Under the pieces are notes generated by a model. That model made no database searches. It saw nothing but the letters and a program-made list of their open reading frames with translations, and was not told the DNA's origin. A DNA stretch of 64,000 nucleotides from Eubacteriales bacterium (lineage in GTDB: Bacteria > Bacillota > Clostridia > Oscillospirales > CAG-272). Of this stretch, positions 47,338 through 64,000 are shown one piece after another (positions within the stretch are counted from its first letter, which is position 1; every line of letters starts with the position of its first letter). The position numbers and the translations under genes were made by a program. The stretch spans positions 15,735 to 79,734 of the forward strand of contig JAZONS010000052.1 of the NCBI GenBank assembly GCA_045654585.1, read 5' to 3'.

Positions 47338-47393
47338 TCAGGTGTGGTAAAAATTACAAATTATATATTATGCACAAAAAAGGAGAAAAACAA

Positions 47394-50300
47394 GTGAAAA
47401 AGACTAAATTAATTGTTGCTCTTGCAGCTGTACTTTGCCTGCTTGTTTCGATGCTTGCAGTTCATACGTTTGCAGCTGATGGCTCCGCGAGCTACGGCGG
47501 TCTTGCCTTAAGCGGAGGAACCGATGAAGTGACCGGCAAAAAATTTGCAATGGATTCTTATCATACCTGTAAGGATACCGAAACTATGCCGGTAACACTT
47601 GAGGCGTGGGTGTATATTCCCGATTCGCTTAAGGGCGAGGCGGTTGGAACGCTTTACGGTAATTACTGGGCCGCATCAAAATACGGCAATGCGTTTATCA
47701 ACTGGGCAATAGCTAAAGATGCTACGCCGAGACTTGTATGGAGCAGCTCTCTTGACGGAGAGATGTATGACGTGTACTTCAATGAGTCTCGCCTTCCTAC
47801 CGATGCATGGTCGCATCTTTCGCTCGTTTACGACGGAGATACGGGCGTTATATCCTGCTATGTAAACGGAGTGCTCACCGAAACGAAGTACTATTATCCC
47901 GCGATCGATCCCGACGTTCTCGAGCTTCCGATGATACTTGGCGGCGATAACAGAACGATGAATGCAAGCTATTTCAAGGGTGAGATAGGAGATATAACAG
48001 TTTATTCCGACGTAAGAGATGCCGATGAGATCAGCGCGGATTACGCAAAGGGAATGGATATGACTGTGGCGACGGCAGATCTTACCGATGCTATCTGCTA
48101 CTATGATTTGGATTCCGAAGATATAGGAAAGAACATCGTTGATGAAACCGGAAACGGATATGATATCATATACAGCAAAACATGGCTCACCGAGGCTGAA
48201 ATGGAAGCTATAAGAAGCGCATCCGGATTCAAGCCCTCATATTCCTTTGCTGTTATGGGAGATACTCAGATGCTGGCGGATTATTATCCCGAAAAGATGC
48301 CCACTCTTTATCAGTGGATAGCGGATAATGCTGCCGCGGATAAAAAGAATATCAAGTTTGCTATCGGTCTTGGCGATATAACCAACGATAACGGCAGAGA
48401 TGACAGATATGAGTACGACGAAGTAAACAAGGTATATTATAAGGTAAGTTCAACGGCTGACAGTACTGCTCCTTATACTCAGTGGGACGTGGCTTACGAT
48501 GCAATAACACTCCTTGACGGTAAAGTCCCTTATGCTCTTGTAAGAGGTAATCACCACGTATACCCCGATTATAACGGTGTAAGAATTGAAGGCTTCAATA
48601 CATATTTTGAAAACTCCGAATGGTTTACCGCGCAGTTTACCTCGGAAAACGGCGGCGGTCTTTATACTACGGGATCCGACCCCGTTACGGGTTATAAGGT
48701 ATCCTATGCGAATACGTATCAGACTCTGACGGTAAATGGTACAAAGTATCTGTTCTTGAATCTTGACTGGAAAATAACCGCAGATATCGTCAGCTGGGCG
48801 GAGCAGGTTATTAAAACTCATCCCGATCATAGCGTTATAGTCAGCACGCACTCTTATCTCGAGTGTGACGGAAACACCGAGGACCTCGGAGATACCACCC
48901 CGAGATCCAGCTATAACGGAGACGTGCTTTGGGATATTCTCTTCTCGAAGTATGCTAACGTTAAAATGATACTTTCGGGACATATAGACAGAGAAATGAT
49001 AGTAACCACTCAGGTTAAGGGAGATCACGGTAACACCGTTACGCAGATGCTTATCAATCCTCAGGGCTTTGACTCCAACCTCGGCGGAACCGCTATGATA
49101 GCTATGTTCTATTTCAACGAGAGCGGAGATGAGATCTTCGTTGAATGGTATTCACCAACGAAGGATAGATATTACAAAAACATTAATCAGTATGCAATAG
49201 ATCTTAATGCCGACGTGGAAAATGAGGCAACGCCTGCTTGGGACGGAGCGAACGTTGAAACGCCTGCAGGCTCGGGAACCGAGGCTGATCCTTACCTTAT
49301 AGCCAACGCGAAAAATCTTGCTTGGATCAGCACGAAGATCACCGATGGCGGCGTATCCTTCGCGGGTAAATACTTCAAGCAGACAGCGGATATAGACCTT
49401 GGTGAAAACATACTTACATCTATTGGTAGATATTACATAAACTCTACGAATATGGCAGCGTTCGGAGGCATTTACGACGGATGCGGTTATTCTATAAAGA
49501 ACGGAACTATAACGGGTGGCAAGCTTTATACCAGCACGAACAGTCCCGCCCCTGAGCGCTATTTCGATTACAGCGAGGGATACGGTCTCTTTGGTGTAAT
49601 TTACGGCGCAACCATTAAGAATATCATCCTTGATGACGTTCAGGTTGTAGGTAGAGGCGTAACGGGTGCTATCGTAGGCCGTGCGGCTGCTCCCGAATTA
49701 ACAAACACCGAGCTTGCGGGCTTCAACACTATCACAGGATGTGAGATCACCGATAGCGTAAGAATAGTAACTCTTCTTCCTACAACCGGTGGATCTGCTC
49801 CCAGATCGTCGGATGACGGACTCAGAGCGGGCCGTGTCGGATCTATATGCGGTATGGCTTACTCGACTAACATCAACGGATGTAAGTCGGCTGCAGAATT
49901 CAGCCTTTCGGGTGACTTCACTCTCGCAGGCGGTATAGTCGGAACAGCGGGACTTAACACCAGAATAGAGAACTCTGCATTCACGGGCGGCATAACGCTT
50001 GCCGAGTCTGCGAGTGGTCTTGTTTCTTATATCGGTGGCATAGTCGGTGCAATTTCTCCCTCTCTTAGCAGTATGGATATGATCGGCTCAAAGCTTAATA
50101 TAAGCGGTCCCTTCTATATAGGCAATTGCTACAACAGCGGTTACTTCACATATCTTGCGAATGAGGCTACTGACGTTTATTACGGCGGTATTATAGGCTT
50201 CTTCGGAGATCTTCCCGACGTAGATGACGATTCTATCGAGTATCCGTATCTCATCGAAAACTGCTATAACCTTTATGAAGCTTCAAAAACAGCTTCCGGC

Positions 50301-53300
50301 GTGAAGCTTTCGGGACTCGTGGCTTACGCTGTTCCCGGAGAAAAGACTCTTTACGTAAAGAATTGCTACTCCGTATCGGTTGAAGCGGAAGAGGGTGAGA
50401 GCAACGAGTTCAGATTCGAAGCCGGTGCTACCTCTATCGACGGTCTTGACGCTATCGCTTGGGAGAATTGCGGAACTCTTGCAAAGACTGATATGAGCGG
50501 CTACGTTTCCGCAGTGGATGCAAGAATTTCATCCGTAAGAGCAAACGGTGTATCTACTGTCTGGATCGTAGGCTCGGGAGCTCCCACCGTAACGGCTACC
50601 GAAGGACTTAAGTATCTTGACACCGCAAGTAACATATATTACGTTTATGAAAACGGCGCATGGGTTGCGGTAAAGAATATAACCATCACCGATAACTCTC
50701 TTGAGACCGAGTACGGTACTATTCCCAACAAGTATATGACCAATACTATGGTAGTATTTTCAAAATCAGGAAACACGTATACCTGTGTTGGTGGATTTGA
50801 TAAGCTTTCCGAGGCTGTCAGCTGCGCTATTAATTCGAAGTATGGACTGACGTACGATCCGAATGGCGAGTCTGTTATCTATTTCAGAGCCGACGTTACT
50901 ACTAAGGATAATATAAGCGGTAACCTCGGATATATCGTAGGTACGGTAGTATTTGACCTTGGCGGTCACACGTTGACTCAGGCAAACAGCGAGCCTATAT
51001 TCAGAGCTTATTCGAAGTATTTGAACGGAACGGCGGAAAGCTATCCCGACGTTTTCTATCTCCCTTCATACTACGTTGTAAAGAACGGTGATATAGTTCT
51101 TAATACAAACGGATTGTTCTATTTCGGTACGGACGGTTCGGGATACAATCTCTTCACAGGTCCCGCTCCTTACGAAGTAAAAACTCTTAACTGGACTCTT
51201 GACGGAGTTAATATATCTCTTGCGAGAGGCGCAACACTGAATAGCCTCCTCGGAAAATATAAGGAGAGCGCAGATCACAAGGTGGATAAGGCTACTCACG
51301 TGAACCTTACTATCAAGGATAACTGCGTACTCGATATAACCAACGCTCCTTCGAACTTCGTTCTCTTCGATGCAAATGATCCTATCACCGAAGGTATGAT
51401 AAACAGCGTATCCTACAATACCAACTCGATCGTTAACGTTGAGGTCGGTGCGTGCGATATTATCGCATCGAACAGTAAGTTTACACTCCAGTCTGTTCAC
51501 CCGAACAACGGATCGTCGGTGACGTACACCGAGGATGAAAACGGTAACGCGCTTACTCTCAGCATTGGAGGCACCGAGTATAATCACGAGGATCTTTATA
51601 CTCCTTACGGATATATAAACACCGAATATTCCAACGTTGCTTCGCACCCCATAATAGAATTCACCTATTCAAACGGTAAGTACACTTGCTATAAGTCGTA
51701 TACCGATCTTGGAGATGCATTATCGGGTAACAGCGGTGCAAGAATCCGTTGCAGAGACGAGGGAACTCTCGCTGTCGTTTATGTGCGTGACAATATCACT
51801 GTTTCTTCGACTATGAGCGGTAATATGGGTTATATCTGCGGAACGATGGTCATTGACCTTGGCGGAAATACCATTACTCAGACAAACAGCGCTCCTCTCT
51901 TCAAGGCGTTTGCCAAGTATGACGGATCCCGTATCGGAAATTCCAACTTCAAGCTCATAAACGGCGAAATAAAGCTTACGAATCACAGCTTGTTCCAAGT
52001 AAGTATTGAGGGTACACCTTATGCTAACGATATCACAAACGTGAAAAACGTTAACTGGACTCTTGATAATCTTACTCTTACTGTAGGATCTGGCGTTGCA
52101 AACGCATTTACGGAATTTAGCGATTACGGCTCGAGCACATACGACGGAAGAAAGATGGTGTTCAATCTTAATATAAGTGATAACTGCGTAATTGATATGA
52201 CAAATGCTGACGCAGGCACGCTTCTCTTCGGCGCAAACGATCCTGTTATTAAGAATACCGCCGGTACGACAAAGTGCTATACCGATTCCGAAGTAAATAT
52301 CAATGTTGGAGCTTGCAGTATACTTGCTGCGAGCGGTAAGGATCCCGTATGGCTTTCGGTAAATAAAGATAACGGCTCATCCGTAACCTTCACCAAGAAT
52401 GCGGAAAACGAGGGAGCTACCGTAACGGTCGGCGACGTGACCTGCACTTATGAGAGTCTCACCACGCCTTACGGATACGTTCCTCTTAAGTATGCGGCTT
52501 ATCCTATTGCCGAGTTCAAGGTTGTTGACGGTGAATACGTCTTTAACAAGGGTTACACTTACCTAAACCAGATATATTCAACGGCTAATCTTTGCTTAAC
52601 TAAAGGTTCGAAAGCTGTACTCTGTTTCAGAGATGATATCAAAACTTCCGATTATACAGGAAGTGGCTCTTACGTATCCGGAAACTTCGGATATAATATG
52701 GGCACTATTATAATAGACCTTAACGGTCATACTCTTACTCAGGATGCTCCTAACCCCATTCTGAGAGCGTACGCAAAGCATAATTCAGCGACTGCAACGG
52801 CTGAGGCAGGGTACTATGAGATCATTAACGGTAATATCGTTCTCAACTCCTATGGAATATTTGACGTCGGCGCTGAGGGATCACAATATCAAAGCTCAAC
52901 TGTCGATAAAACACTTTATTGGACGTTTGATAATATCAATATCTCCTTCGGCAAGAACGCAACCGTGACCTCGCTTATTCAGTTTACCGAGAAGCTTAAG
53001 GTTGCACGCAATATGGGTATGAACGTAACCATCAAGGAGAATTGTGAAATAGACTTGACAAATGCTCCCTCGAACTTCCTTCTCTTCAATGCAAACGAAA
53101 CCACGTCTAAATATACCAATTCCATTGTAACGTTTAACATCGAGGGCTTGCAGATAATTGGCGGTGCCAAGAGCTTCAAGTGGTTTGACGTTCACGCAAG
53201 CAACGGCTCGTCCGTAATATTTAGCAGCTCCGATAACGGATACGTTCAGCTTGAGCTTTCAAAGAAAGCAGCTTCCGGTCTTGATACTTCGGTAGTATTC

Positions 53301-54221
53301 AAGAACTCGAAAGGTGCAGCTCTTACTCTTGTAAAGATTTTCGAGGGAGAGGAAACCACGGTTTATACTCTTGCTCCCGCAAGCATAAAGAGCTTCGTTC
53401 CAAAGATGAGCTTAACGCTTGACAGAAATCTTATAATGAACGCCTACGTACCCGTAAATAACCTACAAAAGTTTACATTTGATGGTGTATTGTACGACGA
53501 TCTTACCGCATTATCCGAAAATAAGATAACGCTTGACGACGGTAACGACTACTATCTCATCACGATTTCTCTCGATGCGAAAGAGGCGGCAAGAACGGTT
53601 AAGCTCGTGGCAACAGTTGATATAGGCGGCAAGAGCGCAACGGCAACCTTCACCTTTAGCATACCCAAGTATGCAGAGAAAATTATAGATAGCGGAACCG
53701 ATACCGAGGTAACTCTTATCAAGGACGTACTTGCATATATCAAGTCGGCTTACACCTACTTCGGCACGAATGATCCCGAGGCTATCTCGAAGATCGATGC
53801 GATTCTCGGTAACTATTCCGCAAAACCCACCGTCGAAGGTGACTCTCTGGCAAGTGTCTCGGGCTTCAAGTCGGTAACCTTCATTCTCGACGGAACGCCT
53901 TCAATGAGATTCTATCTTGCAGACGGCGCGAATGCTGAGAACTATGCGTTCTACGTAGGCATCAAGAAGGTGGCAACCGAGGTATCGGCAGACGGTAGTT
54001 ACGTTGATATCGACGTTTATGCGTACGCACTCTGCGAGACCGTATCGGTAAAGGTCGGTGGAGTTGACGCGGGAAGTTTCCATATCAACAGCTATTATAC
54101 CTACGTCAGCGGTGACAAGTATACCGCAGAAAATAAAGCCGAGCTCGTGGCACTTACAGAATGCTTCTGGAAGTATCTTCAGAGCGCAAGAGCATACAGA
54201 GAGTCGGTAATCGAAGGATAA
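47394..54221 (+). CDS. Giant secreted modular protein 1: LamG + calcineurin-like metallophosphoesterase + GLUG-type region + three ~290-aa modules + conserved C-terminal domain
   Basis: GTG at 47394 lies 7 nt after AAGGAG; the ORF-track ATG at 47370 has no RBS. It has a signal peptide and a LamG motif WSHLSLVYDG...CYVNG. MPE motifs are FAVMGDTQ, GLGDIT, VRGNHH, STHSYL and SGHID. The GLUG-like region is GGIVG/GAIVG. Confidence 0.8.
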   Translation: MKKTKLIVALAAVLCLLVSMLAVHTFAADGSASYGGLALSGGTDEVTGKKFAMDSYHTCKDTETMPVTLEAWVYIPDSLKGEAVGTLYGNYWAASKYGNAFINWAIAKDATPRLVWSSSLDGEMYDVYFNESRLPTDAWSHLSLVYDGDTGVISCYVNGVLTETKYYYPAIDPDVLELPMILGGDNRTMNASYFKGEIGDITVYSDVRDADEISADYAKGMDMTVATADLTDAICYYDLDSEDIGKNIVDETGNGYDIIYSKTWLTEAEMEAIRSASGFKPSYSFAVMGDTQMLADYYPEKMPTLYQWIADNAAADKKNIKFAIGLGDITNDNGRDDRYEYDEVNKVYYKVSSTADSTAPYTQWDVAYDAITLLDGKVPYALVRGNHHVYPDYNGVRIEGFNTYFENSEWFTAQFTSENGGGLYTTGSDPVTGYKVSYANTYQTLTVNGTKYLFLNLDWKITADIVSWAEQVIKTHPDHSVIVSTHSYLECDGNTEDLGDTTPRSSYNGDVLWDILFSKYANVKMILSGHIDREMIVTTQVKGDHGNTVTQMLINPQGFDSNLGGTAMIAMFYFNESGDEIFVEWYSPTKDRYYKNINQYAIDLNADVENEATPAWDGANVETPAGSGTEADPYLIANAKNLAWISTKITDGGVSFAGKYFKQTADIDLGENILTSIGRYYINSTNMAAFGGIYDGCGYSIKNGTITGGKLYTSTNSPAPERYFDYSEGYGLFGVIYGATIKNIILDDVQVVGRGVTGAIVGRAAAPELTNTELAGFNTITGCEITDSVRIVTLLPTTGGSAPRSSDDGLRAGRVGSICGMAYSTNINGCKSAAEFSLSGDFTLAGGIVGTAGLNTRIENSAFTGGITLAESASGLVSYIGGIVGAISPSLSSMDMIGSKLNISGPFYIGNCYNSGYFTYLANEATDVYYGGIIGFFGDLPDVDDDSIEYPYLIENCYNLYEASKTASGVKLSGLVAYAVPGEKTLYVKNCYSVSVEAEEGESNEFRFEAGATSIDGLDAIAWENCGTLAKTDMSGYVSAVDARISSVRANGVSTVWIVGSGAPTVTATEGLKYLDTASNIYYVYENGAWVAVKNITITDNSLETEYGTIPNKYMTNTMVVFSKSGNTYTCVGGFDKLSEAVSCAINSKYGLTYDPNGESVIYFRADVTTKDNISGNLGYIVGTVVFDLGGHTLTQANSEPIFRAYSKYLNGTAESYPDVFYLPSYYVVKNGDIVLNTNGLFYFGTDGSGYNLFTGPAPYEVKTLNWTLDGVNISLARGATLNSLLGKYKESADHKVDKATHVNLTIKDNCVLDITNAPSNFVLFDANDPITEGMINSVSYNTNSIVNVEVGACDIIASNSKFTLQSVHPNNGSSVTYTEDENGNALTLSIGGTEYNHEDLYTPYGYINTEYSNVASHPIIEFTYSNGKYTCYKSYTDLGDALSGNSGARIRCRDEGTLAVVYVRDNITVSSTMSGNMGYICGTMVIDLGGNTITQTNSAPLFKAFAKYDGSRIGNSNFKLINGEIKLTNHSLFQVSIEGTPYANDITNVKNVNWTLDNLTLTVGSGVANAFTEFSDYGSSTYDGRKMVFNLNISDNCVIDMTNADAGTLLFGANDPVIKNTAGTTKCYTDSEVNINVGACSILAASGKDPVWLSVNKDNGSSVTFTKNAENEGATVTVGDVTCTYESLTTPYGYVPLKYAAYPIAEFKVVDGEYVFNKGYTYLNQIYSTANLCLTKGSKAVLCFRDDIKTSDYTGSGSYVSGNFGYNMGTIIIDLNGHTLTQDAPNPILRAYAKHNSATATAEAGYYEIINGNIVLNSYGIFDVGAEGSQYQSSTVDKTLYWTFDNINISFGKNATVTSLIQFTEKLKVARNMGMNVTIKENCEIDLTNAPSNFLLFNANETTSKYTNSIVTFNIEGLQIIGGAKSFKWFDVHASNGSSVIFSSSDNGYVQLELSKKAASGLDTSVVFKNSKGAALTLVKIFEGEETTVYTLAPASIKSFVPKMSLTLDRNLIMNAYVPVNNLQKFTFDGVLYDDLTALSENKITLDDGNDYYLITISLDAKEAARTVKLVATVDIGGKSATATFTFSIPKYAEKIIDSGTDTEVTLIKDVLAYIKSAYTYFGTNDPEAISKIDAILGNYSAKPTVEGDSLASVSGFKSVTFILDGTPSMRFYLADGANAENYAFYVGIKKVATEVSADGSYVDIDVYAYALCETVSVKVGGVDAGSFHINSYYTYVSGDKYTAENKAELVALTECFWKYLQSARAYRESVIEG

Positions 54222-54234
54222 GGAGGTAGAGAAA

Positions 54235-54366
54235 ATGAAAAAGTATATAATCCCCGAGCTTGAAGTAATCGAGCTTGAAGCAGAAGATATCATCACTACC
54301 TCGCCGGGTACGGAAACGACACCGAAAGAGGATAACGACGGTATCTGGGACTTCGATTTTGCTTAA
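54235..54366 (+). CDS. 43-aa acidic small protein (family member)
   Basis: The ATG lies 8 nt after AAGGAGG and 13 nt after the giant gene stop. Product is MKKYIIPELEVIELEAEDIITTSPGTETTPKEDNDGIWDFDFA. Confidence 0.65.
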   Translation: MKKYIIPELEVIELEAEDIITTSPGTETTPKEDNDGIWDFDFA

Positions 54367-54621
54367 TGTCAGAATTGTCCCTATGAAAACACCTCATCCA
54401 CCACTAAAGTGGTCCCCCTATACCTGACCACTCCCGTGTCGCGAACTTTCGCGAGGCGTTGCTCGCTCGGTTTGCTCGCGTTTGTGGGACTTCGCTTCAA
54501 AAAACAATACTTAATCGTTTTTTGTGCGCTCACCCACTGGGGAAGGCTAGAGGTATCCGGGACTTCGATCTCAGTTAATTTAAACCGAATCAAGAATAAC
54601 TGATTCAATATTTATAAAGCG

Positions 54622-54664
54622 ACAAGGCTTACCCGAGTAATCTTGGGTAAGCCTTGTTTTTTTG
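54622..54664. terminator. Bidirectional terminator between the giant gene 1 unit and araC
   Basis: 13-bp stem acaaggcttaccc/gggtaagccttgt followed by a T-run. Confidence 0.8.
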
Positions 54665-54737
54665 TCCTATATGTAAACTATTGTATTCAAAAAAGCAGTT
54701 ATTCGATGCATAGATAATAAAAAAGCGAAGCGAGATA

Positions 54738-55562
54738 CTACAAAACTGCATCGTTGATGACAATCTTCTTGGGGTAAAACATACGGTAATCGTTTGGAGT
54801 GTATCCCGTGAGCTCCTTGAAGCTTCGGTAAAAGCTTCGTTCGCTTCCGAAGCCGCATTCGATGGCAATATCAACTATCGTTCTGTCGGTGTTTTTTAAA
54901 AGGTGTCTGGCTGATTCAAGACGCAACATTGATAAGAGCGTGGAAAAACCAAATCCTGCCGCGCTGTTGATGCATCTTGAGAGATACTTTTCGTTGTATC
55001 CGAGCGCGGAAGCGGTTTTTGTGATAGTGATACGTTCGCTTTTATGGGAATCGATATAAGTTATAACCTTGCTTAAAACGTTATCGTCAATGTGCTTTTC
55101 TATGAGCGATACGTTATTAGAATAGTCGCCGACAATGTTGTATAAAAATCCTTTTACTTTGTACAGTGTAAGATTTCCGGTGCGTACTGTGTCTAAAAAA
55201 GCCGCGTATTCATCGATATTCAGCGGGAATACCGAGCGCTCGCCCGTATTCTTTTCGTTGGGAGCAAAAAATGATTGGATGAGTGATGGTAAAAAGTTAA
55301 ATCTAAAGTATTCCGTGCCCTCGGGTCTGTCATACGCGTGGGACTGAAAAGGGAAGAGCAGAGCGCAACTTCCTGCCGGGATCTTCTCGGAATTCTTGCC
55401 GAGAACGTGCAGAGTCAATTCTCCGGATGTAACCAGAAGGAGCTCTGCCGATGGGTGTATATGAAAATGCATTTTGCATTCTTCCGCGTTTCCGAGTTTG
55501 ATACTGTGCTCTTTTGCGATAAAAGATGTGGAAATTTCCTGCAAACTGTTGAAATATTTCAT
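54738..55562 (-). CDS. AraC family transcriptional regulator (cupin + HTH), divergent from giant gene 2
   Basis: Cupin-like N-terminus HFHIHPSAELLLVTSGEL and C-terminal HTH CGFGSERSFYRSFKELTGYTPNDYR. Confidence 0.85.
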   Translation of the reverse strand: MKYFNSLQEISTSFIAKEHSIKLGNAEECKMHFHIHPSAELLLVTSGELTLHVLGKNSEKIPAGSCALLFPFQSHAYDRPEGTEYFRFNFLPSLIQSFFAPNEKNTGERSVFPLNIDEYAAFLDTVRTGNLTLYKVKGFLYNIVGDYSNNVSLIEKHIDDNVLSKVITYIDSHKSERITITKTASALGYNEKYLSRCINSAAGFGFSTLLSMLRLESARHLLKNTDRTIVDIAIECGFGSERSFYRSFKELTGYTPNDYRMFYPKKIVINDAVL

Positions 55563-55586
55563 AAAAACCTACCTTTATGTAACCTT

Positions 55587-55616
55587 ATGGCATATATAAT
55601 ACCATATAATGGCATA
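55587..55616. promoter_or_regulatory. Candidate operator: ATGGCATA direct repeat (22-nt spacing) with inverted TATGGTAT between the copies
   Basis: ATGGCATA occurs at 55587-55594 and 55609-55616. ATACCATA lies at 55599-55606. The site sits in the araC / giant gene 2 divergent region. Confidence 0.35.
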
Positions 55617-55744
55617 AGTTGTCAAGAAGGTTATGCTATAATAAAGTCGAACGTACACGTATTTTCTATTTAATTATTATAATAGATACGTGAATTTTGT
55701 ATCATTTGAATTAACCAAATCAAGTATTCAAAAGGAGAATGGAA

Positions 55745-58700
55745 ATGAAAAAGAGAAGAATTTTGTTAATTGCTCTCTCATTGGTGCTCTTTGTTGGACT
55801 TGCGGTCTGTGCTTCGCTTTCGGTTTTTGCGGATAGCACTGTTACAGAGTCAACCTGGATATCTGCACCTGAGAAAACAATGGTAAAGTGCGCAGGCGCT
55901 AACTGCAATCACAAGGAATGTAATTACGTATATTCCTTCGCTGTTGTCGGCGATACGCAGAACCTTAATATCTATGACGTTAATAATAAGACGGAGCATA
56001 TGAAAGGACTTTACAACTGGTTACTTGCTAACAAGGAGAGCAAGAATATTCAGTACGTTTTAGGTCTTGGAGATATCACCCAGGCTTATTACAGGGGATA
56101 CCAGAGTGGTGTCTGGGAGCAGGAATGGGTTAATGCCAAGGAAGCGATATCCTTGCTTGACGGCAAGATTCCTTATTCTCTTGTAAGAGGTAATCACGAT
56201 ATCACTGCCGGCTTCAACGGAGCATTCGGTGTCGGCAATAAGTATTATACCGATCTTTCCGCGCTCGCTGCGACGAAGGACAGCGCAGATGAAAACGGCA
56301 GACCCATGGCGGGCTTCCTTAACGAGAATAAAATCGAGGATACCTACCGCAAGGTTATCATCGGTGACCATAAGTACATAATTTTCACTCTCGATTGGCA
56401 CCCTACGGAGGCATGCCTTGACTGGGTAGATACGATACTTGCCGAGAACTCTGACTATCAGGCTATAATAACGCTCCATTCGTTTATTTACCGTGACGGT
56501 TCTATCACGGACGATTACGAAGATACCTTCCCTTATGAAAATCTTTCGGGTACCCGTCCCAATTGGGAAGAGGTTTCAAATTCGGGCGGTAACGTTTTCC
56601 CGAAGGTTCTCTGGCAAAACGTTCTCTCAAAGCATAAGAACGTAGAGATGATCCTTTGCGGTCACATAGATGAAGACAATATCGTAACGACTCAGCTCAA
56701 GGGTGAAAACGGAAATACCGTTACCGCTATGCTCATAGACGGACAGACGATAGACTCTACCGTCGAGCCTGTTGGTATGGTAGCGATGTTCTACTTCTCG
56801 GCAGACGGCAAGGTTATGAACGTTGAGTACGTTTCAACAGTAAGAGAGGCTGCAGATAAAAACGCTTATCTTGGCAGTCAGAATCAGTTTGAGGTTTCTC
56901 TTGATTATACCGTATCAGAAACGGACAGCGGTTGGACTGAAACTGCTCACGGAAGCATTTTGACCGAGACTTATAACGCATATCCCTTCCACGTCCTTAT
57001 GGACGATGACTCGGACGAGAGCACGGATGCAATCCTCTTTGGCAGCTATTCGAGCTGGGAGGAAACGCTAAAAGCTATTCACGATTTCTGCGGCAATACA
57101 AGACCTTCATCGCACAAGAAGATGAAGACCTATTACATAGTTATGTCGAAGGACTATACCGATACATATGTTGGTATTCACGATAACCGCGCTGCTTACA
57201 ACTTTGGTAAAACCGTTCTTGATCTTAACGGAAAAACGCTGACCCTCGCATCGACTGACGGCGTATTTCTTCCGTTCTACGTAAATTCGAGCGGAAAATA
57301 TCCGAGATTTACAATCACGAACGGAAACATTGATATTACGGGCAAGGTTAAGCTTGTTGCGCTTCAGAGCGGATCTTCGGCTCAGGGAGAGACCGGTACG
57401 CTTGAGCTTTCTAACCTTAATATCACTTATTCTTCCGGTGCGACCGCAACGCCATTGATCACAACTTATAACGGTTCCGGCACGGGAAGCTACGTTGACT
57501 TTAAGGTTTCGAACTGTAATATAGATTCGTCTGCCGTAAACGGCGCTATGACACTGTTCGGTCTTAACGATACTAATAATAACAATCACGTGGCTTTGAA
57601 TATAACCGGCGGTAGCATCAAGGGATCAACCTTGGCTAACACTACTGTTTTCGCACTCAATAACCTGTCCGATAAGGTTACCTTCACTAAGGATTCCGAC
57701 GGTAATTATATGACCTTGACTCTTTCTGACAGTGCGACGTTTGACGGAGTGTTCTATTCCGACGTTAAGGATACGTATCTTGAGTTTGGTACGCCCGTTG
57801 CCGACGGAGATTCTTATCTCTATTCTCTTGAAAAATCGGGAGACGTTCTTACAGATTACGGAATTATACCCGAAAGCGCAACCTCGTATCCCTTCGTGCT
57901 CTTCAAAAACGGCGAGATGATTCATAAATCTTCGGACTGGAAGACTCTTATTGATACCGACTTTAAAGACACGGCAAATTATCAGTCGGGATGCACACTT
58001 CTTTTAAGAAGTGATTACACCACAAGCAATTCTTCAGGAGCTCCCTCTTATTTTGCTCGTATTGATGACTTGACGATAGACCTCGGCGGAAATACGTTGA
58101 CCCGTGGTTCAAAACATCTGTTCCAGATATTTGGAACGGAGTCTACAGCTCACTCTACTTCTATAAGGTTTATAAACGGAACGATAGCATCGGGAAGCAG
58201 CACAGCTCCCATAGCATTTAATAACTCAGATACTAATACCAATACCGATACGTTTGACTTCACCTTTGACGGCGTCAGATTCGACCTTAGCGCTTCAGTA
58301 ACCGGATCGCAGGGAATCGTAGTATGCTTCGGCGACGGTACTCAAAAAGGTGTCGATGCTACGATAACTCTCAATGACTGCACGATCTACCGAGGCTCGT
58401 CGACGAGAAAAATGACTCTCTTCGCACTTATCGACGAAAAAGATGGCAAGGTTAATAACAAAACAGACGTTAACGTAGTAATCAACGGCGGAGAGCTCGT
58501 TGCCGATACTATGTCGGGCATAACCCTTGCGACTTATAGCCCTGTGCGTGAAGGTATGACCGCCTCTGCGGACAGTCTTTCGTTAGGTAAGGGAAGTGAC
58601 GGTAAATACCTTATTGCAAAGCTTCCTGCGTCTTATACCGTTCCTACGACGACGTATGCTTTGCTTGACGGTAATTATGCTGTTGGAAAGGATTCGGATG

Positions 58701-61378
58701 ACGGCACGACTGCATATTGCAGCTTCAATAAGCTTACCACTCCTTACGGTGACATTTCAGCAAAGTATGCATCTATTGTAAATTATCCGTTTGCTGTATT
58801 TTATAACGGTGTATTCAAGAACGTATACAGCTCTTATAACAAGGCTATCGGCGGCGCGGTCGCTCTTATCGATACTGATGCCGAGGTAGCGGTATGCGAT
58901 ACTGCGTACGTAGTATTGAGAAGTAATTTTGTTGCAACAGATAACGGATTCTTCTCGGGAGCAAGAGGTAACTTGATCGTTGATCTTCAGGGTTACACTA
59001 TCAGCTCCTCTACTGCAGCTCTTGCGAGCATCAGTATGAATTATAACAACATAACCGATGAGGCTGCGGTGGAGAAGAATCTCAGCTTCACCTCAAATAT
59101 CACGTTCAAAAACGGTACCATCAAAAACGACAGATCGGGACTTCCGATCATCGCAATAGACCAGACGAACGGAAGCGTAACGACAGTTCCGGGCGCTACG
59201 GCAAAGAAGATCTACTTTGGATTTGATAACGTAACCTTCAGAACGGCAAGCCAGCCTGTTTTACATAATTATGACAAAACGTCCTCTCACGGACTTGAAA
59301 TTACCGTTTTTGCAAAGGATTGTACCTTTGACTTTACTGGGGCTACCGAAGGCGTAGCAATGATCTCGCTCTTTAACAAGCTTGTAAAAGCAAATATAGA
59401 GCTCGTTGGATGTAATGTAATTGCGAGCAAGCTTGATAGCTTCAACGTTTATAAGATCGGTTCCGACGATACCGCAAAGATCACCAAGGGCGATAACGGT
59501 GTTTATATGACCGTAACTCAGTCAACTGAGGCTCTTCCTACTACGGTATATAGTTTGTCTGACGGTGGAAGCGCATCCTTCTATCTCACATCAAGCTCCG
59601 GTGGAAAATACGTTTATGATCTTGGCGCTGATGAGTTTATAGACGGATATGGAACTATCCCTGCTCAGTATACCAACAAAGAGACCTATCCCGTAGTTCT
59701 CTTCGGCAACGGTTCTGTTACCGGATACACTACAGTAGCGAATGCATTTGCGGCTTTACCTACAACAGGTAACTATACCATTCTTGTAAGAAGAGACGTA
59801 GTCAAAGATACCAAGAAGGCTGTAAGTGCCTTCAGAGGAAATCTTACGATTGACCTTGATGGACATACGCTGACGGTAGCTGTTGACGGAAACTATCTCA
59901 TAGATATAACGCTCAGTGATGTTGGTACGGGCGCATCGGCAGGCTTCAGCTTTAAAAACGGTACGCTTAAGAAGGAAGGCGGACGCGGACTTGTTCTTTA
60001 CAACTATAATTCGAGCTTGAACGGAAGTGCAAATTATACGTTCGATTTCGATAGCGTAACGTTTGTTTCAACGGACTCCACCTATACACCTAACGTAATA
60101 TTCAATACATGGGAAGACGGTTTTACGAATGCAACTGTTGCGGCAAGTGATTATAAGCTCGTTGCAAATTCAACGTTCACGGACTGCGTATTTGATTTCG
60201 CAAGCTCAATAGACGGTGCGGTAATGCTTCCTCTTAACCATAGCAGTAACACGAGGGACAGAGTCGTGCATAACGTTACCGTTAACGGAGGTACTGTTCT
60301 TGCCGATACTGCGGCGGACTTTGCGGATAGATTCGTAAAGCTCGACGGAAACACTAACGGAAGAGCGGATTCTATCACCTTCTCAAAGGTAAACGGCGGT
60401 AATTACACGGCGCTTACTCTTCCTTACGGAACAGAAGCTCCTGCTGCAGAGTATAACGGACTTGTATTCGTCAAGATCTCCGATAACGGAACAGACGTGA
60501 CCTACAGACTCAGACCCGTAGAATTTGCTAATTTGAATTATGCGCCTAAGATGAGTCTTACTATTGACAGAAACCTTATAATGAATGCGTATATTCCTGT
60601 AAACTTTACACAAAAGTTTACATTTGATGGTGTAGAATATACAAATCTTACTGCGTTTGACGGTAAAACGGTAGAGATAGACGGCGCAATGTACTATCTT
60701 GTATCGGTAGAGCTTTCTGCAAAGGAAGCGGCAAGAAACGTTATTCTTGAAGCAACGGTTATGGCTGATGAGAATACCGCAACCGCAACGTTCACGTTCT
60801 CAATTGTGAAGTATGCCGAGAAGCTCCTTGGCGATTCCGCAGTTACGGAAACCGAAAAGACTCTTGTTCTTGACGTGCTTCAGTATATCAAAGCCGCATA
60901 TACCTACTTCGGCACTACCGATGCCGAGCAGATAGCAAAGATCAACAGCCTTCTCGGTGATTACGCATCGAAGCCTACCGTAGAGGGAAGTGCAACGGCT
61001 GAAACAACGGGAATGAAGAGCGCAACTCTCGTTCTCTCGGGCAAGCCTAGCATCAGGTTCTATCTTGCAGACGGTGCTGACGCTTCGGCGTATAAGTTCT
61101 TCATCGACGGAAAGCAGGTTAAAACCGTAATTTCCGATGACGGAGCATATGTTGATATAGACGTATACGCATATGCGCTCTCTGAAACCGTAACCTACAC
61201 GGTTGACGGAGAGAATGCGGGTAGCTTTCATATCAACGCGTACTACGCATTCGTCAGCGGCACGGGAGAAAACTCTTACGCCGGCGAAGATAAAGAAGCT
61301 CTCACCACTCTTACCGAGTGCTTCTGGAAGTATCTGCAGAGCGCAAGGGCGTACAGAGAGTCGGTTGTTGAAAACTGA
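55745..61378 (+). CDS. Giant secreted modular protein 2: metallophosphoesterase + four ~295-aa modules + conserved C-terminal domain
   Basis: The ATG at 55745 lies 7 nt after GGAG. Signal peptide is MKKRRILLIALSLVLFVGLAVCA. MPE motifs are FAVVGDTQ, GLGDIT, VRGNHD, LHSF and CGHID. Modules start near 56960, 57852, 58735 and 59642. Confidence 0.8.
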   Translation: MKKRRILLIALSLVLFVGLAVCASLSVFADSTVTESTWISAPEKTMVKCAGANCNHKECNYVYSFAVVGDTQNLNIYDVNNKTEHMKGLYNWLLANKESKNIQYVLGLGDITQAYYRGYQSGVWEQEWVNAKEAISLLDGKIPYSLVRGNHDITAGFNGAFGVGNKYYTDLSALAATKDSADENGRPMAGFLNENKIEDTYRKVIIGDHKYIIFTLDWHPTEACLDWVDTILAENSDYQAIITLHSFIYRDGSITDDYEDTFPYENLSGTRPNWEEVSNSGGNVFPKVLWQNVLSKHKNVEMILCGHIDEDNIVTTQLKGENGNTVTAMLIDGQTIDSTVEPVGMVAMFYFSADGKVMNVEYVSTVREAADKNAYLGSQNQFEVSLDYTVSETDSGWTETAHGSILTETYNAYPFHVLMDDDSDESTDAILFGSYSSWEETLKAIHDFCGNTRPSSHKKMKTYYIVMSKDYTDTYVGIHDNRAAYNFGKTVLDLNGKTLTLASTDGVFLPFYVNSSGKYPRFTITNGNIDITGKVKLVALQSGSSAQGETGTLELSNLNITYSSGATATPLITTYNGSGTGSYVDFKVSNCNIDSSAVNGAMTLFGLNDTNNNNHVALNITGGSIKGSTLANTTVFALNNLSDKVTFTKDSDGNYMTLTLSDSATFDGVFYSDVKDTYLEFGTPVADGDSYLYSLEKSGDVLTDYGIIPESATSYPFVLFKNGEMIHKSSDWKTLIDTDFKDTANYQSGCTLLLRSDYTTSNSSGAPSYFARIDDLTIDLGGNTLTRGSKHLFQIFGTESTAHSTSIRFINGTIASGSSTAPIAFNNSDTNTNTDTFDFTFDGVRFDLSASVTGSQGIVVCFGDGTQKGVDATITLNDCTIYRGSSTRKMTLFALIDEKDGKVNNKTDVNVVINGGELVADTMSGITLATYSPVREGMTASADSLSLGKGSDGKYLIAKLPASYTVPTTTYALLDGNYAVGKDSDDGTTAYCSFNKLTTPYGDISAKYASIVNYPFAVFYNGVFKNVYSSYNKAIGGAVALIDTDAEVAVCDTAYVVLRSNFVATDNGFFSGARGNLIVDLQGYTISSSTAALASISMNYNNITDEAAVEKNLSFTSNITFKNGTIKNDRSGLPIIAIDQTNGSVTTVPGATAKKIYFGFDNVTFRTASQPVLHNYDKTSSHGLEITVFAKDCTFDFTGATEGVAMISLFNKLVKANIELVGCNVIASKLDSFNVYKIGSDDTAKITKGDNGVYMTVTQSTEALPTTVYSLSDGGSASFYLTSSSGGKYVYDLGADEFIDGYGTIPAQYTNKETYPVVLFGNGSVTGYTTVANAFAALPTTGNYTILVRRDVVKDTKKAVSAFRGNLTIDLDGHTLTVAVDGNYLIDITLSDVGTGASAGFSFKNGTLKKEGGRGLVLYNYNSSLNGSANYTFDFDSVTFVSTDSTYTPNVIFNTWEDGFTNATVAASDYKLVANSTFTDCVFDFASSIDGAVMLPLNHSSNTRDRVVHNVTVNGGTVLADTAADFADRFVKLDGNTNGRADSITFSKVNGGNYTALTLPYGTEAPAAEYNGLVFVKISDNGTDVTYRLRPVEFANLNYAPKMSLTIDRNLIMNAYIPVNFTQKFTFDGVEYTNLTAFDGKTVEIDGAMYYLVSVELSAKEAARNVILEATVMADENTATATFTFSIVKYAEKLLGDSAVTETEKTLVLDVLQYIKAAYTYFGTTDAEQIAKINSLLGDYASKPTVEGSATAETTGMKSATLVLSGKPSIRFYLADGADASAYKFFIDGKQVKTVISDDGAYVDIDVYAYALSETVTYTVDGENAGSFHINAYYAFVSGTGENSYAGEDKEALTTLTECFWKYLQSARAYRESVVEN

Positions 61379-61393
61379 AAGGAGGAGTGATTA

Positions 61394-61573
61394 ATGCAGA
61401 ATTCAAAATGCAGAATGCAGAATGAAAAGAATGAATTAGTGGTTATGAGTTATATAGCTCCCGAGCTTGAAGTGATCGGGCTTGACGCAATGGATATCAT
61501 CACTACCTCACTCGGAACGGAAACGACTCCGAAAGAAGATAACGACGGTATCTGGGACTTTGACCAAGGTTAA
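61394..61573 (+). CDS. 59-aa acidic small protein (family member with N-terminal extension)
   Basis: The ATG lies 7 nt after GGAGGAG. Product is MQNSKCRMQNEKNELVVMSYIAPELEVIGLDAMDIITTSLGTETTPKEDNDGIWDFDQG. The conserved core could alternatively start at the ATG at 61445. Confidence 0.6.
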   Translation: MQNSKCRMQNEKNELVVMSYIAPELEVIGLDAMDIITTSLGTETTPKEDNDGIWDFDQG

Positions 61574-61585
61574 TACTTGATTTAC

Positions 61586-61635
61586 CTGTACCGCGAAGTA
61601 ATAATTTTCTTCGCGGTACAGAACTTTATTTTTTC
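61586..61635 (+). terminator. Terminator after small ORF 2
   Basis: 13-bp stem ctgtaccgcgaag/cttcgcggtacag followed by a T-rich tract. Confidence 0.75.
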
Positions 61636-61667
61636 TAAAACTTGATTATTTAAAAGGAGAAAATGAA

Positions 61668-64000
61668 ATGAAAGCGTTGCGCATAAGAAAAATAACAACA
61701 GTCGCTTTTGTTCTTATCGCTGTTTTGATTTCGCTGCTTTTTGTTCTTGATTCTGCGGCTGCAGAATCAGAGAGTGGCGTTACAGCGGGCAGCAAGGGCG
61801 AGATCGACGTGTGGCTTATCGCAGGTCAGTCAAATGCGGTTGGCTTTGGAAGTGACGGCTTGTCGGCAAAGTATCTTGAAGACAAAAGATATACCGAGGG
61901 ATTTGATAACGTTCTTTTCTGGGGTAAGTATGAATCAACGTACAATCCCGAGGCTTTCGTTCCCGTAACGGTCGGACTTGGAAAGCAGTCAGCAACGAAT
62001 ACCGCAACCGTAGGCGCTGAGATAGGAATGGCGGCGGCACTTGACGGTAACGGAAGAATGAATGCGATAATCAAACGTGCTGTCGGTGGTTCTTACCTTT
62101 ATCCGACGACTTATAGCTCGGTATCGCAGAATTCGGGTACGTGGACGTCCCCATCTTATTTGGAAAAGTATTCGATAGATACCGAGGGAAATAAGCTCGG
62201 TAAACTCTACACAGAATTTATACAGACCACAAAAGACGGTATAGATATGCTTATTGCCGACGGTTATACTCCGGTCATTAAGGGCGTCTGGTATATGCAG
62301 GGCGAGGCGGAAACACCGACTCAGCTTTATGCAGATGCATACGCGGAGCTTCTGACTATGCTTATCGGCGATATGAGAGAAGACCTTGGAGAGATAGTCA
62401 ACAAGGACCTTTCGAATCTTCCGTTTGTAATGGGAAAAATAACGAGAAATCCCGAATATGATATTCCGGAATTTATCGACACCGTAAATGATGCTCAGGT
62501 AGCTGTAAGCTCAACTGTTGCGAACTCTTATATAGTTGACACAACGGGAATGCCGCAGATAGACGGATGGCATTATACCGCCGATTCTCAGCACGAGATT
62601 GGCGTTCAATTTATAAACACCGTCATCAATTCGTCGGGTAAATACAGTGTTACCGCGAGCGGAAACGGCGTGAGTCTTAGCGGCGGCGGAGCAAAATCGG
62701 TAGGTGATGAGGTGACCGTTACGTTTACCTCTCTTGATGGTTTTGAGTTATCATCCGTAGCTATGAAGGTTGGTGCGGGAGAAGCTGTTGATATTACGGA
62801 TGCTCTCACGAAGGACACAGAGAACTCCGATGTTTATTCGTATACGTTCGTTATGCCTTCAGGCAACGTTGCGTTTCTGATAAATGCTACGGACCTTAAT
62901 GCGGAGTCCACCGAATACGGTCTTATTCCCTCAATGTTTACAGATGCGGAACAGTATCCGTTCATTCTCTTCAAGAGCGGAGAATTTGTATACGCCTTTG
63001 ATGATTGGTGCGATTTTGTAAACAGTAACAGTATCATGGGTTGTACTTTGCTTCTCAGAAGAGATTATGATACTTCGGAGTCCTCGGGAAGTCCTTGGGC
63101 GCTTTGCCATAGCGACGAACTCACTATAGACCTCGGAAACCATATCTTCACTCGCGGAATGTACCATATGTTCCAGTGCCTTGGCAGAGATGAGAAGGTA
63201 TATACCTCAACTATAACGGTTAAAAACGGAACTCTCAAGTCTACGTTCTCATACGTTAACGCATCGGGTACGACGACGGGAGCATCTCCACTTATCGTTT
63301 TCAACAATTCCGCAAGCTCAACAACCGTTGATAACTTTAACTTTATTTTTGACGGAGTAACCTTCGACGTAAGCTCGGGCAGAGGTATTGTAGCAAGCTT
63401 CACGGACGGAACGTGCGGTACTGACAATACAATAACGCTTAACAACTGCACGATATACAGAGGAGCATCTACCTCGGCTATGACTCTTTTCGCCCTTGCG
63501 GAAACGAGCGGTAATAAGAATGATATTAAAGTTACTATAAACGGCGGTAAGCTTGTCGCTGATACTCTCTCAAAGCTGACCTTCGCTACGTATGACGTTG
63601 AGCGTGAGACGGGCGAGGGAAGTCCCGACAGTCTTACGCTTAATACAGACTCAAGCGGTAATAAATTTACCGTTGAGCTTCCTGTAAGCGCGGGAACACC
63701 TTCGCAGATGTTTGCCTTTACGAAGGGCGGTTATGCAGCTGTAAAGCTTTCGGATGATGGCACGACCGCAAAATATACTCTCGAATATCTCGGCACTCCG
63801 TATGGAAATATAGACGCAAAATACGCATCTGCAGCCGATTATCCGTTTGTATTATTTAAAAACGGAGCTGTACTGACCGCATTCTCTAACTGGAAGACGT
63901 TTATTGATTCGACGATGTATAATTCCGCAGATTACAAGACGGGATGCACGCTTCTGCTCCGCAGAGATTACAGCACGTCGGAGGCGTCCGGAAATGCGTG
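61668..64000 (+). CDS. Giant secreted modular protein 3 (3' end outside window): SGNH/sialate-O-acetylesterase-like head + the same ~295-aa modules
   Basis: The ATG follows AAGGAG and the frame is open to the window end, so it is absent from the ORF track. Signal peptide is MKALRIRKITTVAFVLIAVLISLLF. The motifs IAGQSNAVG, WYMQGEAE and DGWHYTADSQ fit the SASA/DUF303 esterase fold. Modules start near 62910 and 63792. Confidence 0.75.
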   Translation, partial: MKALRIRKITTVAFVLIAVLISLLFVLDSAAAESESGVTAGSKGEIDVWLIAGQSNAVGFGSDGLSAKYLEDKRYTEGFDNVLFWGKYESTYNPEAFVPVTVGLGKQSATNTATVGAEIGMAAALDGNGRMNAIIKRAVGGSYLYPTTYSSVSQNSGTWTSPSYLEKYSIDTEGNKLGKLYTEFIQTTKDGIDMLIADGYTPVIKGVWYMQGEAETPTQLYADAYAELLTMLIGDMREDLGEIVNKDLSNLPFVMGKITRNPEYDIPEFIDTVNDAQVAVSSTVANSYIVDTTGMPQIDGWHYTADSQHEIGVQFINTVINSSGKYSVTASGNGVSLSGGGAKSVGDEVTVTFTSLDGFELSSVAMKVGAGEAVDITDALTKDTENSDVYSYTFVMPSGNVAFLINATDLNAESTEYGLIPSMFTDAEQYPFILFKSGEFVYAFDDWCDFVNSNSIMGCTLLLRRDYDTSESSGSPWALCHSDELTIDLGNHIFTRGMYHMFQCLGRDEKVYTSTITVKNGTLKSTFSYVNASGTTTGASPLIVFNNSASSTTVDNFNFIFDGVTFDVSSGRGIVASFTDGTCGTDNTITLNNCTIYRGASTSAMTLFALAETSGNKNDIKVTINGGKLVADTLSKLTFATYDVERETGEGSPDSLTLNTDSSGNKFTVELPVSAGTPSQMFAFTKGGYAAVKLSDDGTTAKYTLEYLGTPYGNIDAKYASAADYPFVLFKNGAVLTAFSNWKTFIDSTMYNSADYKTGCTLLLRRDYSTSEASGNA

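Follow-up and report, generated by a model that had tools for sequence, protein, structure and literature searches.

Three genes with a tandemly repeated module

The stretch of DNA analysed here, called the window throughout, spans 64,000 nt (G000:C52:15735-79734) of the genome of an uncultured Clostridia bacterium, whose assembly of 2.6 Mb lies in 75 contigs and is 81% complete. The last 17 kb of the window hold three plus-strand open reading frames (ORFs) that carry consecutive copies of a protein module of about 295 residues. This module is a real repeat, undescribed and unnamed but of a familiar kind. The genes that contain it are located as follows.

47370..54221, plus strand: gene 1, 2283 aa
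55739..61378, plus strand: gene 2, 1879 aa
61668..64000, plus strand, running off the window: gene 3, with 1581 aa on the contig (locus L001)

The N-termini of all three proteins are Lys-rich, hydrophobic and signal-peptide-like. In gene 1 the signal peptide is followed by a Laminin_G_3 domain, a metallophosphoesterase, a GLUG-like Gly-rich region, three modules and a C-terminal tail. The order in gene 2 is signal peptide, metallophosphoesterase head, four modules and tail, and that in gene 3 is signal peptide, SASA esterase head, three modules and tail; SASA domains are sialate or carbohydrate O-acetylesterases. Pfam recognizes Laminin_G_3 and Metallophos in gene 1, Metallophos in gene 2 and SASA in gene 3, and a scan of the whole proteins encoded by genes 1-3 gave no match in the other 60-70% of each. 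Module boundaries were taken from the envelopes of a profile built from the 10 modules of genes 1-3.

50703..51602, plus strand: gene 1 module 1, aa 1112-1411 (profile envelope and DNA repeats)
51597..52460, plus strand: gene 1 module 2, aa 1410-1697 (profile envelope and DNA repeats)
52461..53387, plus strand: gene 1 module 3, aa 1698-2006 (profile envelope and DNA repeats)
56939..57847, plus strand: gene 2 module 1, termed g2M1 (profile; positional orthologues in other metagenome-assembled genomes and in paralogue L005)
57848..58735, plus strand: gene 2 module 2, termed g2M2, of a 'type 2' shared with SASA-type proteins (profile; the module used for folding)
58736..59638, plus strand: gene 2 module 3 (profile envelope)
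59639..60529, plus strand: gene 2 module 4 (profile envelope)
62907..63791, plus strand: gene 3 module 1, termed g3M1, type 2 (profile envelope)
63792..64000, plus strand: start of gene 3 module 2, termed g3M2; its remainder, module 3 (g3M3) and the tail lie beyond the window

An earlier note, made from the letters of the window, had proposed that the module is repeated at least nine times, with starts near 50706, 51597 and 52461 in gene 1, 56960, 57852, 58735 and 59642 in gene 2, and 62910 and 63792 in gene 3. These starts lie 0-21 nt from the profile envelopes, and the proposed period of roughly 860-925 nt compares with a measured 861-909 nt. The count was too low: the alignment comprises ten units, each 288-305 aa long. 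Genes 1 and 3 have three apiece and gene 2 has four, the total exceeding nine because gene 3 extends past the window with a third module; the genome as a whole has 50. A repeat search at the DNA level finds the copies in gene 1 spaced by 900, 861 and 858 nt. Consecutive envelopes adjoin without linkers.

Against the profile, of which they are themselves the basis, the ten modules score 270-337 bits. As a control, 200 shuffled modules reach 7.4 bits or less, and paralogous modules from other parts of the genome, which are independent of the profile, score 50-214 bits. Pairwise identity is 34-41% among the modules of gene 1, 47-53% among g2M2, g3M1 and g3M2, and 19-29% for all other pairs. Some distant pairs escape BLASTP alone and are joined by the profile, as are all the others. 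Every one of the ten fits a definition of the family as a unit of about 295 aa with a YG...YPF cap, a DLxGxT first rung and an NxC turn. The YG and DLxG motifs quoted in the note were recovered as Y4, G5, D78 and L79, which together with G111, C178 and G214 are the only residues conserved in at least 90% of the 50 modules; G111 and C178 are invariant.

In the genome-wide profile search the 50 modules fell into 14 ORFs, which are spread over ten contigs and encode 1197-2825 aa. These ORFs make up 3.45% of the genome, all have signal-peptide-like starts, and their arrays contain 2-5 copies. Across the genome and the metagenomic homologues, the architecture of the family is an array of 2-6 modules followed by a conserved tail. 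Heads identified by Pfam in the other paralogues are SASA, Metallophos or purple-acid-phosphatase-like domains, GH95 and Big_5, along with one sub-threshold BD-FAE-like match. In L002 (G000:C63:21020-28621) a Metallophos head is followed by a module, a SASA head and four further modules, and L009 (G000:C52:94658-101764) likewise carries two heads, one SASA and one purple-acid-phosphatase-like. Each looks like a fusion of the architectures of genes 2 and 3, which are adjacent in the window, and both heads occur together in 14 of 199 homologues. A phage tail-fibre origin was considered and ruled out: all 14 genes encode signal peptides and enzyme heads and are located among housekeeping genes.

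Predicted folds of the module and the tail

AlphaFold2, run on gene 2 module 2 with the alignment of 50 modules, returned a model of the single module with a mean predicted local distance difference test score (pLDDT) of 92.1 and a predicted TM-score (pTM) of 0.92, which bears out a self-contained repeat at the boundaries first proposed. Residues 16-53 of the model form a cap consisting of a hairpin, a helix and a strand. Residues 74-229 hold short strands in five consecutive triplets, one about every 30-35 residues, and, after one lower-confidence loop, residues 243-295 form a five-strand β subdomain. The note had envisaged a small cap joined to a parallel β-helix. The predicted strands, the weak structural matches and the language-model neighbours described below agree with this idea, but the last 55 or so residues form a separate subdomain and no structural match is significant.

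Foldseek comparison of the module model with PDB and BFVD gave nothing at E ≤ 1e-3. The best E-value was 0.13, TM-scores were 0.31 or lower, and these weak matches are mostly β-solenoids: 7jvi (a β-helix domain from capybara gut), Awp3b and other Awp adhesins, a PL6 lyase and Ag43, with Hbp, pertactin, tailspikes, pectate lyases and pectin methylesterases among the further ones. A language-model Atlas query with a 90% orthologue reached unnamed clusters only, the nearest named clusters being Beta_helix/NosD, Pectate_lyase_5, Chlam_PMP and Glug. No Pfam family recurs at E ≤ 1 among the 50 modules, the stray matches to one module each including Beta_helix_3 at 0.018 and Pertactin at 0.058, and comparison of the module with NCBIfam profiles gave sub-threshold noise only. 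A profile search of PDB produced one candidate, an engineered pilin T-antigen chain (E = 1e-6 over 60 residues), which we read as a compositional match and not as homology. The module is thus a confidently folded domain that has no name, and its β-solenoid-like fold class is inferred.

The β-helix is also the fold of polysaccharide lyase (PL) families PL1, PL3, PL6 and PL9, of glycoside hydrolase family GH28 and of carbohydrate esterase family CE8. With PL6 alginate lyase, pectate lyases and pectin methylesterases among the weak matches, and with heads that are themselves carbohydrate-active enzymes, the modules could be catalytic β-helix domains (polysaccharide lyase, GH28-like or esterase-like), and the proteins multi-enzyme chains. 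However, no profile of a catalytic family matches any of the 50 modules even at E ≤ 1, and no sequence match was obtained in NCBIfam or PDB. Moreover, D78 in the DLxG turn is the sole conserved charged residue, and there is no conserved constellation of Lys, Arg, Asp and Glu. We regard catalytic modules as very unlikely and favour a non-catalytic array.

The tail that follows the array is a second conserved unit. Within the window it was delimited in two genes.

53388..54218, plus strand: gene 1 tail, 277 aa (tail alignment; no Pfam match)
60530..61375, plus strand: gene 2 tail, 282 aa (tail alignment; predicted fold)

In all 14 module proteins the end is formed by this tail, which is about 275 aa long and invariant at 26 positions. 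Its model (pLDDT 92.1, pTM 0.89) is predicted to consist of an Ig-like β-sandwich, three helices, a second sandwich and a long terminal helix, and its structure matches are to generic tandem Ig folds only, such as myomesin My9-11 (E = 1e-4, low TM-score). The same tail ends at least seven further large secreted proteins of this genome that lack modules: four GH95 proteins, two of them with F5/8-type-C domains, one GDPD phosphodiesterase, and two proteins of 1.7 kaa without any Pfam match. Module-less tail loci are L019, L020, L021, L022, L023 and L024, on contigs C58, C47, C70, C33, C75 and C26. Because it also occurs on module-less proteins, the tail is an independent unit, present in at least 21 secreted proteins. 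In L011, L019 and L024 it is followed by about 410 more conserved residues that have no Pfam match. The C-termini end ...FWKYLQSARAYRESVVEN, with no LPXTG motif and no hydrophobic stretch. A Pfam scan of 20 proteins found no dockerin, cohesin or SLH domain, and no CWB2 domain. Nor do the proteins end in a β-barrel translocator, the tail being predicted as two β-sandwiches plus helices.

Descent and exchange of modules

The earlier note had seen a closer resemblance between g2M2 and g3M1 than between either and its neighbours, and had taken it as a sign of module shuffling between paralogues. The 50 modules were placed in a quick tree with support only from the Shimodaira-Hasegawa-like approximate likelihood ratio test (SH-aLRT). 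Modules of gene 1 do cluster by gene (support 100), as do those of L007, L009 and L010 (98-100 for the four in-gene clades). Other clades unite modules at equal positions in different genes (L011/L012, L003/L006, L004/L008, and g2M1 with the first module of L005), and g2M2, g3M1 and g3M2 form a clade with support of 98. As the proposal of shuffling had anticipated, modules thus do not cluster strictly by gene.

When orthologues from other metagenome-assembled genomes (MAGs) are included, the four positions of the metallophosphoesterase-type protein form separate old clades across species. A 'type 2' clade (21 members including g2M2, support 95) takes in most modules of the sampled SASA-type proteins. 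The subtype of g2M2 and g3M1 recurs in many other MAGs, at position 2 of metallophosphoesterase-type and positions 1-3 of SASA-type orthologues, and for this reason the likeness of the two modules is that of an old shared module type. The resemblance is real, but it does not speak for exchange between genes 2 and 3.

Signs of exchange are found instead at the end of gene 3. The third module, g3M3, falls in one group (SH-aLRT 99) with the final modules of proteins that have a metallophosphoesterase head, and its 58% identity to module 4 of the homologue P0024 is at the level of orthologues (compare 59% between g2M2 and module 2 of P0024). Its nine best high-scoring segment pairs in BLAST, from seven proteins, all lie in metallophosphoesterase-headed proteins. 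A type-2 third module, by comparison, is present in 19 of the 19 full-length, SASA-headed, three-module proteins of the homologue table that resemble gene 3. Forcing g3M3 into the SASA/type-2 clade, a grouping chosen after the tree had been seen, costs 75.8 log-likelihood units in the approximately unbiased (AU) test (p = 0.00026). The tail of gene 3 is also nearest to tails of the metallophosphoesterase type. A further tract links the two genes at the DNA level.

60843..61584, plus strand: 743-nt tract with 89% DNA identity to gene 3, from its 3' end into the region downstream

This tract consists of the last 535 nt of gene 2 and 206 nt downstream, including a small trailing ORF, and its borders are sharp, identity falling to 44% upstream and 39% further downstream. 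We read it as a product of gene conversion or recombination between genes 2 and 3. In the wider family the order of modules varies among homologues, some of which are non-collinear (for example P0019), and a tail encoded by the goat MAG described below (L014) is 85% identical to that of gene 3, yet stands behind unrelated modules.

Taking the tree and AU test for g3M3, the BLAST matches, the affinity of the tail and the 743-nt tract as evidence, gene 3 is a chimera in which a SASA head and two type-2 modules are joined to a last module and tail of the metallophosphoesterase lineage. Cassette exchange belongs to this family's mode of evolution. The proposal of shuffling between paralogues thus holds, but at g3M3, the tail and the 743-nt tract and not at the g2M2/g3M1 pair on which it had been based.

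Gene duplication combined with in-gene tandem duplication, with no exchange between paralogues, would account for the single clade of gene 1 modules at SH-aLRT 100, for the many equal-position clades such as L011/L012, L003/L006 and g2M1/L005M1, and for the likeness of g2M2 to the first two modules of gene 3 as an old subtype. It fits poorly with a third module and tail of gene 3 that belong to the metallophosphoesterase lineage at orthologue-level identity when all 19 comparable SASA-headed proteins have a type-2 third module, and it is disfavoured by the AU test (p = 0.00026). The sharp tract of 89% identity between genes 2 and 3, the non-collinear order in P0019 and the L014 tail behind unrelated modules also speak against it. 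We therefore consider duplication alone highly improbable and retain exchange of cassettes as a component of the family's history.

Proposed role, distribution and surroundings of the family

The interpretation we prefer, at a probability of about 0.6, is that an unnamed, solenoid-like module forms linker-free arrays that serve as a non-catalytic stalk with a surface tail, and that the proteins evolve by exchange of cassettes. The enzyme heads, one or two per protein, are interchangeable and are drawn from SASA, metallophosphoesterase or purple-acid-phosphatase-like, GH95 and LamG domains. The array would act as a rigid, non-catalytic stalk that holds these heads off the cell surface, possibly with position-specific ligand binding by its modules, and the tail would be a common unit for surface attachment or sorting. 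A non-catalytic rod or binding array is suggested because there are no conserved catalytic-type residues and no linkers, because varied heads are mounted on a common body, and because the terminal domain is shared. The family evolves by three routes: duplication of whole genes, in which the modules keep their positions; duplication or homogenisation within a gene; and recombination by which heads, modules and tails are exchanged between paralogues.

Since conservation is position-specific, there is room for ligand binding by single modules, and an adhesin-like array or one resembling carbohydrate-binding modules (CBMs), in which each position recognizes a different glycan and targets the heads to their substrates, is possible though doubtful as the principal function. 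In the metallophosphoesterase-type protein, the modules at positions 1-4 are of types that share only about 20-27% identity, while the type at each position is kept at 43-92% identity in the orthologues of other MAGs, as expected for a position-specific function, and the β-solenoid adhesins SRRP (serine-rich repeat protein) and Awp are among the weak structural matches. Against this, Pfam searches of the proteins and of the 50 modules revealed no recognizable binding site or CBM family, and the modules of gene 1, L007, L009 and L010 are near-copies of one another, which is a better fit to a role in length or as a stalk.

The proposed stalk has partial counterparts among known systems. Giant repetitive β-solenoid surface proteins are common in gut anaerobes. 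The predicted core, with about five three-strand rungs and Asn, Gly and Cys at the turns, may resemble the right-handed parallel β-helix/pectate-lyase-like superfamily (Beta_helix PF13229, NosD, Pectate_lyase), the class to which the weak structural matches and the nearest named Atlas clusters belong. Unlike members of that superfamily, the modules gave no profile match in any of the 50 copies and have no conserved catalytic residues; and in place of one long helix, 295-aa units of cap, solenoid and β subdomain are set head to tail. The stalks of adhesins (the binding region of Lactobacillus reuteri SRRP, 5nxk; the A-domains of Candida Awp, 7o9o; and the passengers of the autotransporters Ag43, pertactin and Hbp), which are among the top weak Foldseek matches, are extracellular non-catalytic solenoids that present functional parts, as is proposed for the module array. 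Homology to them is not established, because E-values are 0.4-8 and TM-scores 0.1-0.25, and the module proteins differ in having no β-barrel translocator, serine-rich repeats or LPXTG motif and in that the solenoid carries enzymes.

Dockerin/cohesin cellulosomes and SLH-anchored enzymes of Clostridia follow a common logic with the present proteins, in which varied enzymes share a C-terminal non-catalytic module that presumably serves in anchoring; the tail differs from theirs as a 275-aa combination of Ig-like sandwiches and helices that belongs to no named family. The adhesin-like proteins of gut and rumen methanogens (PMC11532034) are likewise described as big families of giant repetitive surface proteins in small anaerobe genomes. 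They come from another domain of life, and that source serves as a literature lead only.

No new mechanism is opened by these results; module and tail are new, unnamed members of the class of giant modular β-solenoid surface proteins. They are two confidently foldable families without a Pfam, NCBIfam or PDB name, which decorate the fucosidases, O-acetylesterases and phosphoesterases of a small gut genome. Naming both domains would improve the annotation of several hundred protein clusters that are now labelled 'metallophosphoesterase' or 'hypothetical'. The family also offers a clean natural case of cassette evolution, with positional orthology, in-gene homogenisation and swaps between paralogues. 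The identities of the heads (GH95 fucosidase-type, O-acetylesterase and phosphodiesterase) suggest foraging on fucosylated, acetylated or phosphorylated hindgut glycans, and the head enzymes probably determine which glycans this bacterium can harvest. A bolder proposal, which we consider unlikely, is that module and tail constitute an unrecognised surface enzyme-display system in uncultured gut Clostridia. The tail would be a new wall-anchoring or sorting domain on more than 20 exo-enzymes per genome, the modules would bind in a position-specific manner, each to another glycan of host, plant or bacterial origin, and cassettes would be recombined and spread horizontally between distant families. 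If true, the system would be functionally analogous to dockerin- or SLH-based display.

A profile search of 1.84 billion representative proteins gave 707 matches at E ≤ 1e-3, of which 393 reach E ≤ 1e-30; each of the 150 proteins listed is matched in 3-6 stretches. Of 199 homologues examined, 187 have 3-5 modules and 155 have the tail, which lies at the extreme C-terminus (median of 0 residues beyond it). All come from metagenomes, and the only name given is 'MAG: metallophosphoesterase [Clostridia bacterium]'. The nearest genome is the goat-colon MAG RGIG2037, which has the same tandem of genes 1, 2 and 3; a single-protein search for related loci led to one goat-colon MAG only. The contig of the goat MAG stops inside module 2 of the gene 3 orthologue, and the 3' part of that gene was not found.

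Strong matches are present in one of 24 other species of the genus and, in a sample of 300 other genomes of the order, in two, both of one genus in another family. This patchy distribution in the genomes searched fits either loss or horizontal spread, and horizontal transfer is suggested because strong matches occur in a distant genus while most congeners have none. The genes of the two distant genomes (G118 and G186, of another family in the same order) have three modules and match at E of about 1e-60, with 23 of the 24 congeneric species lacking such genes. Bovine gut metagenome sequence spans most of the locus at 90-99% identity, and contigs of 285-721 nt from a bovine metatranscriptome align to genes 1 and 2, which no more than hints at expression. 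Word shares in 'skin' and other metagenomes were small and were not taken as evidence of habitat. The bacterium itself is an uncultured member of the Clostridia from the ruminant hindgut.

Upstream of the locus lie housekeeping genes, for a class II aldolase, a PfkB kinase and a Mur ligase. Features between and behind the module genes include a regulator and two small acidic ORFs.

54738..55562, minus strand: AraC-family regulator between genes 1 and 2 (Pfam)
54235..54366, plus strand: small acidic ORF of 43 aa trailing gene 1, paralogous to the one behind gene 2
61394-61573, core from about 61446: small acidic ORF of up to 59 aa trailing gene 2

A DNA repeat of 83% links the small ORFs behind genes 1 and 2, which have in common ...PELEVI.L.A.DIITTS.GTETTPKEDNDGIWDFD, and the one after gene 2 falls within the tract of 89% identity that is common to the downstream region of gene 3. 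An Rfam scan of positions 54200-61700 found nothing. Just past the stop codon of gene 2, 33 nt of GCAGAAT-like repeats (61393-61425) reach a summed contig depth of 190-510x in gut metagenomes, compared with about 8x in the flanks, with many differing loose ends on either side; a lower depth peak lies in 54371-54937. The 33-nt segment may represent either a short repeat of wide occurrence or an artefact of low complexity. Within gene 1, the Gly-rich region (window positions 49200-50702, aa 610-1111) contains repeated G(G/A)I(V/I)G motifs like those of GLUG-type β-helix repeats, with no Pfam match at E ≤ 0.01, and is kept at 46-52% identity in three metagenomic homologues (P0149, P0181 and P0196).

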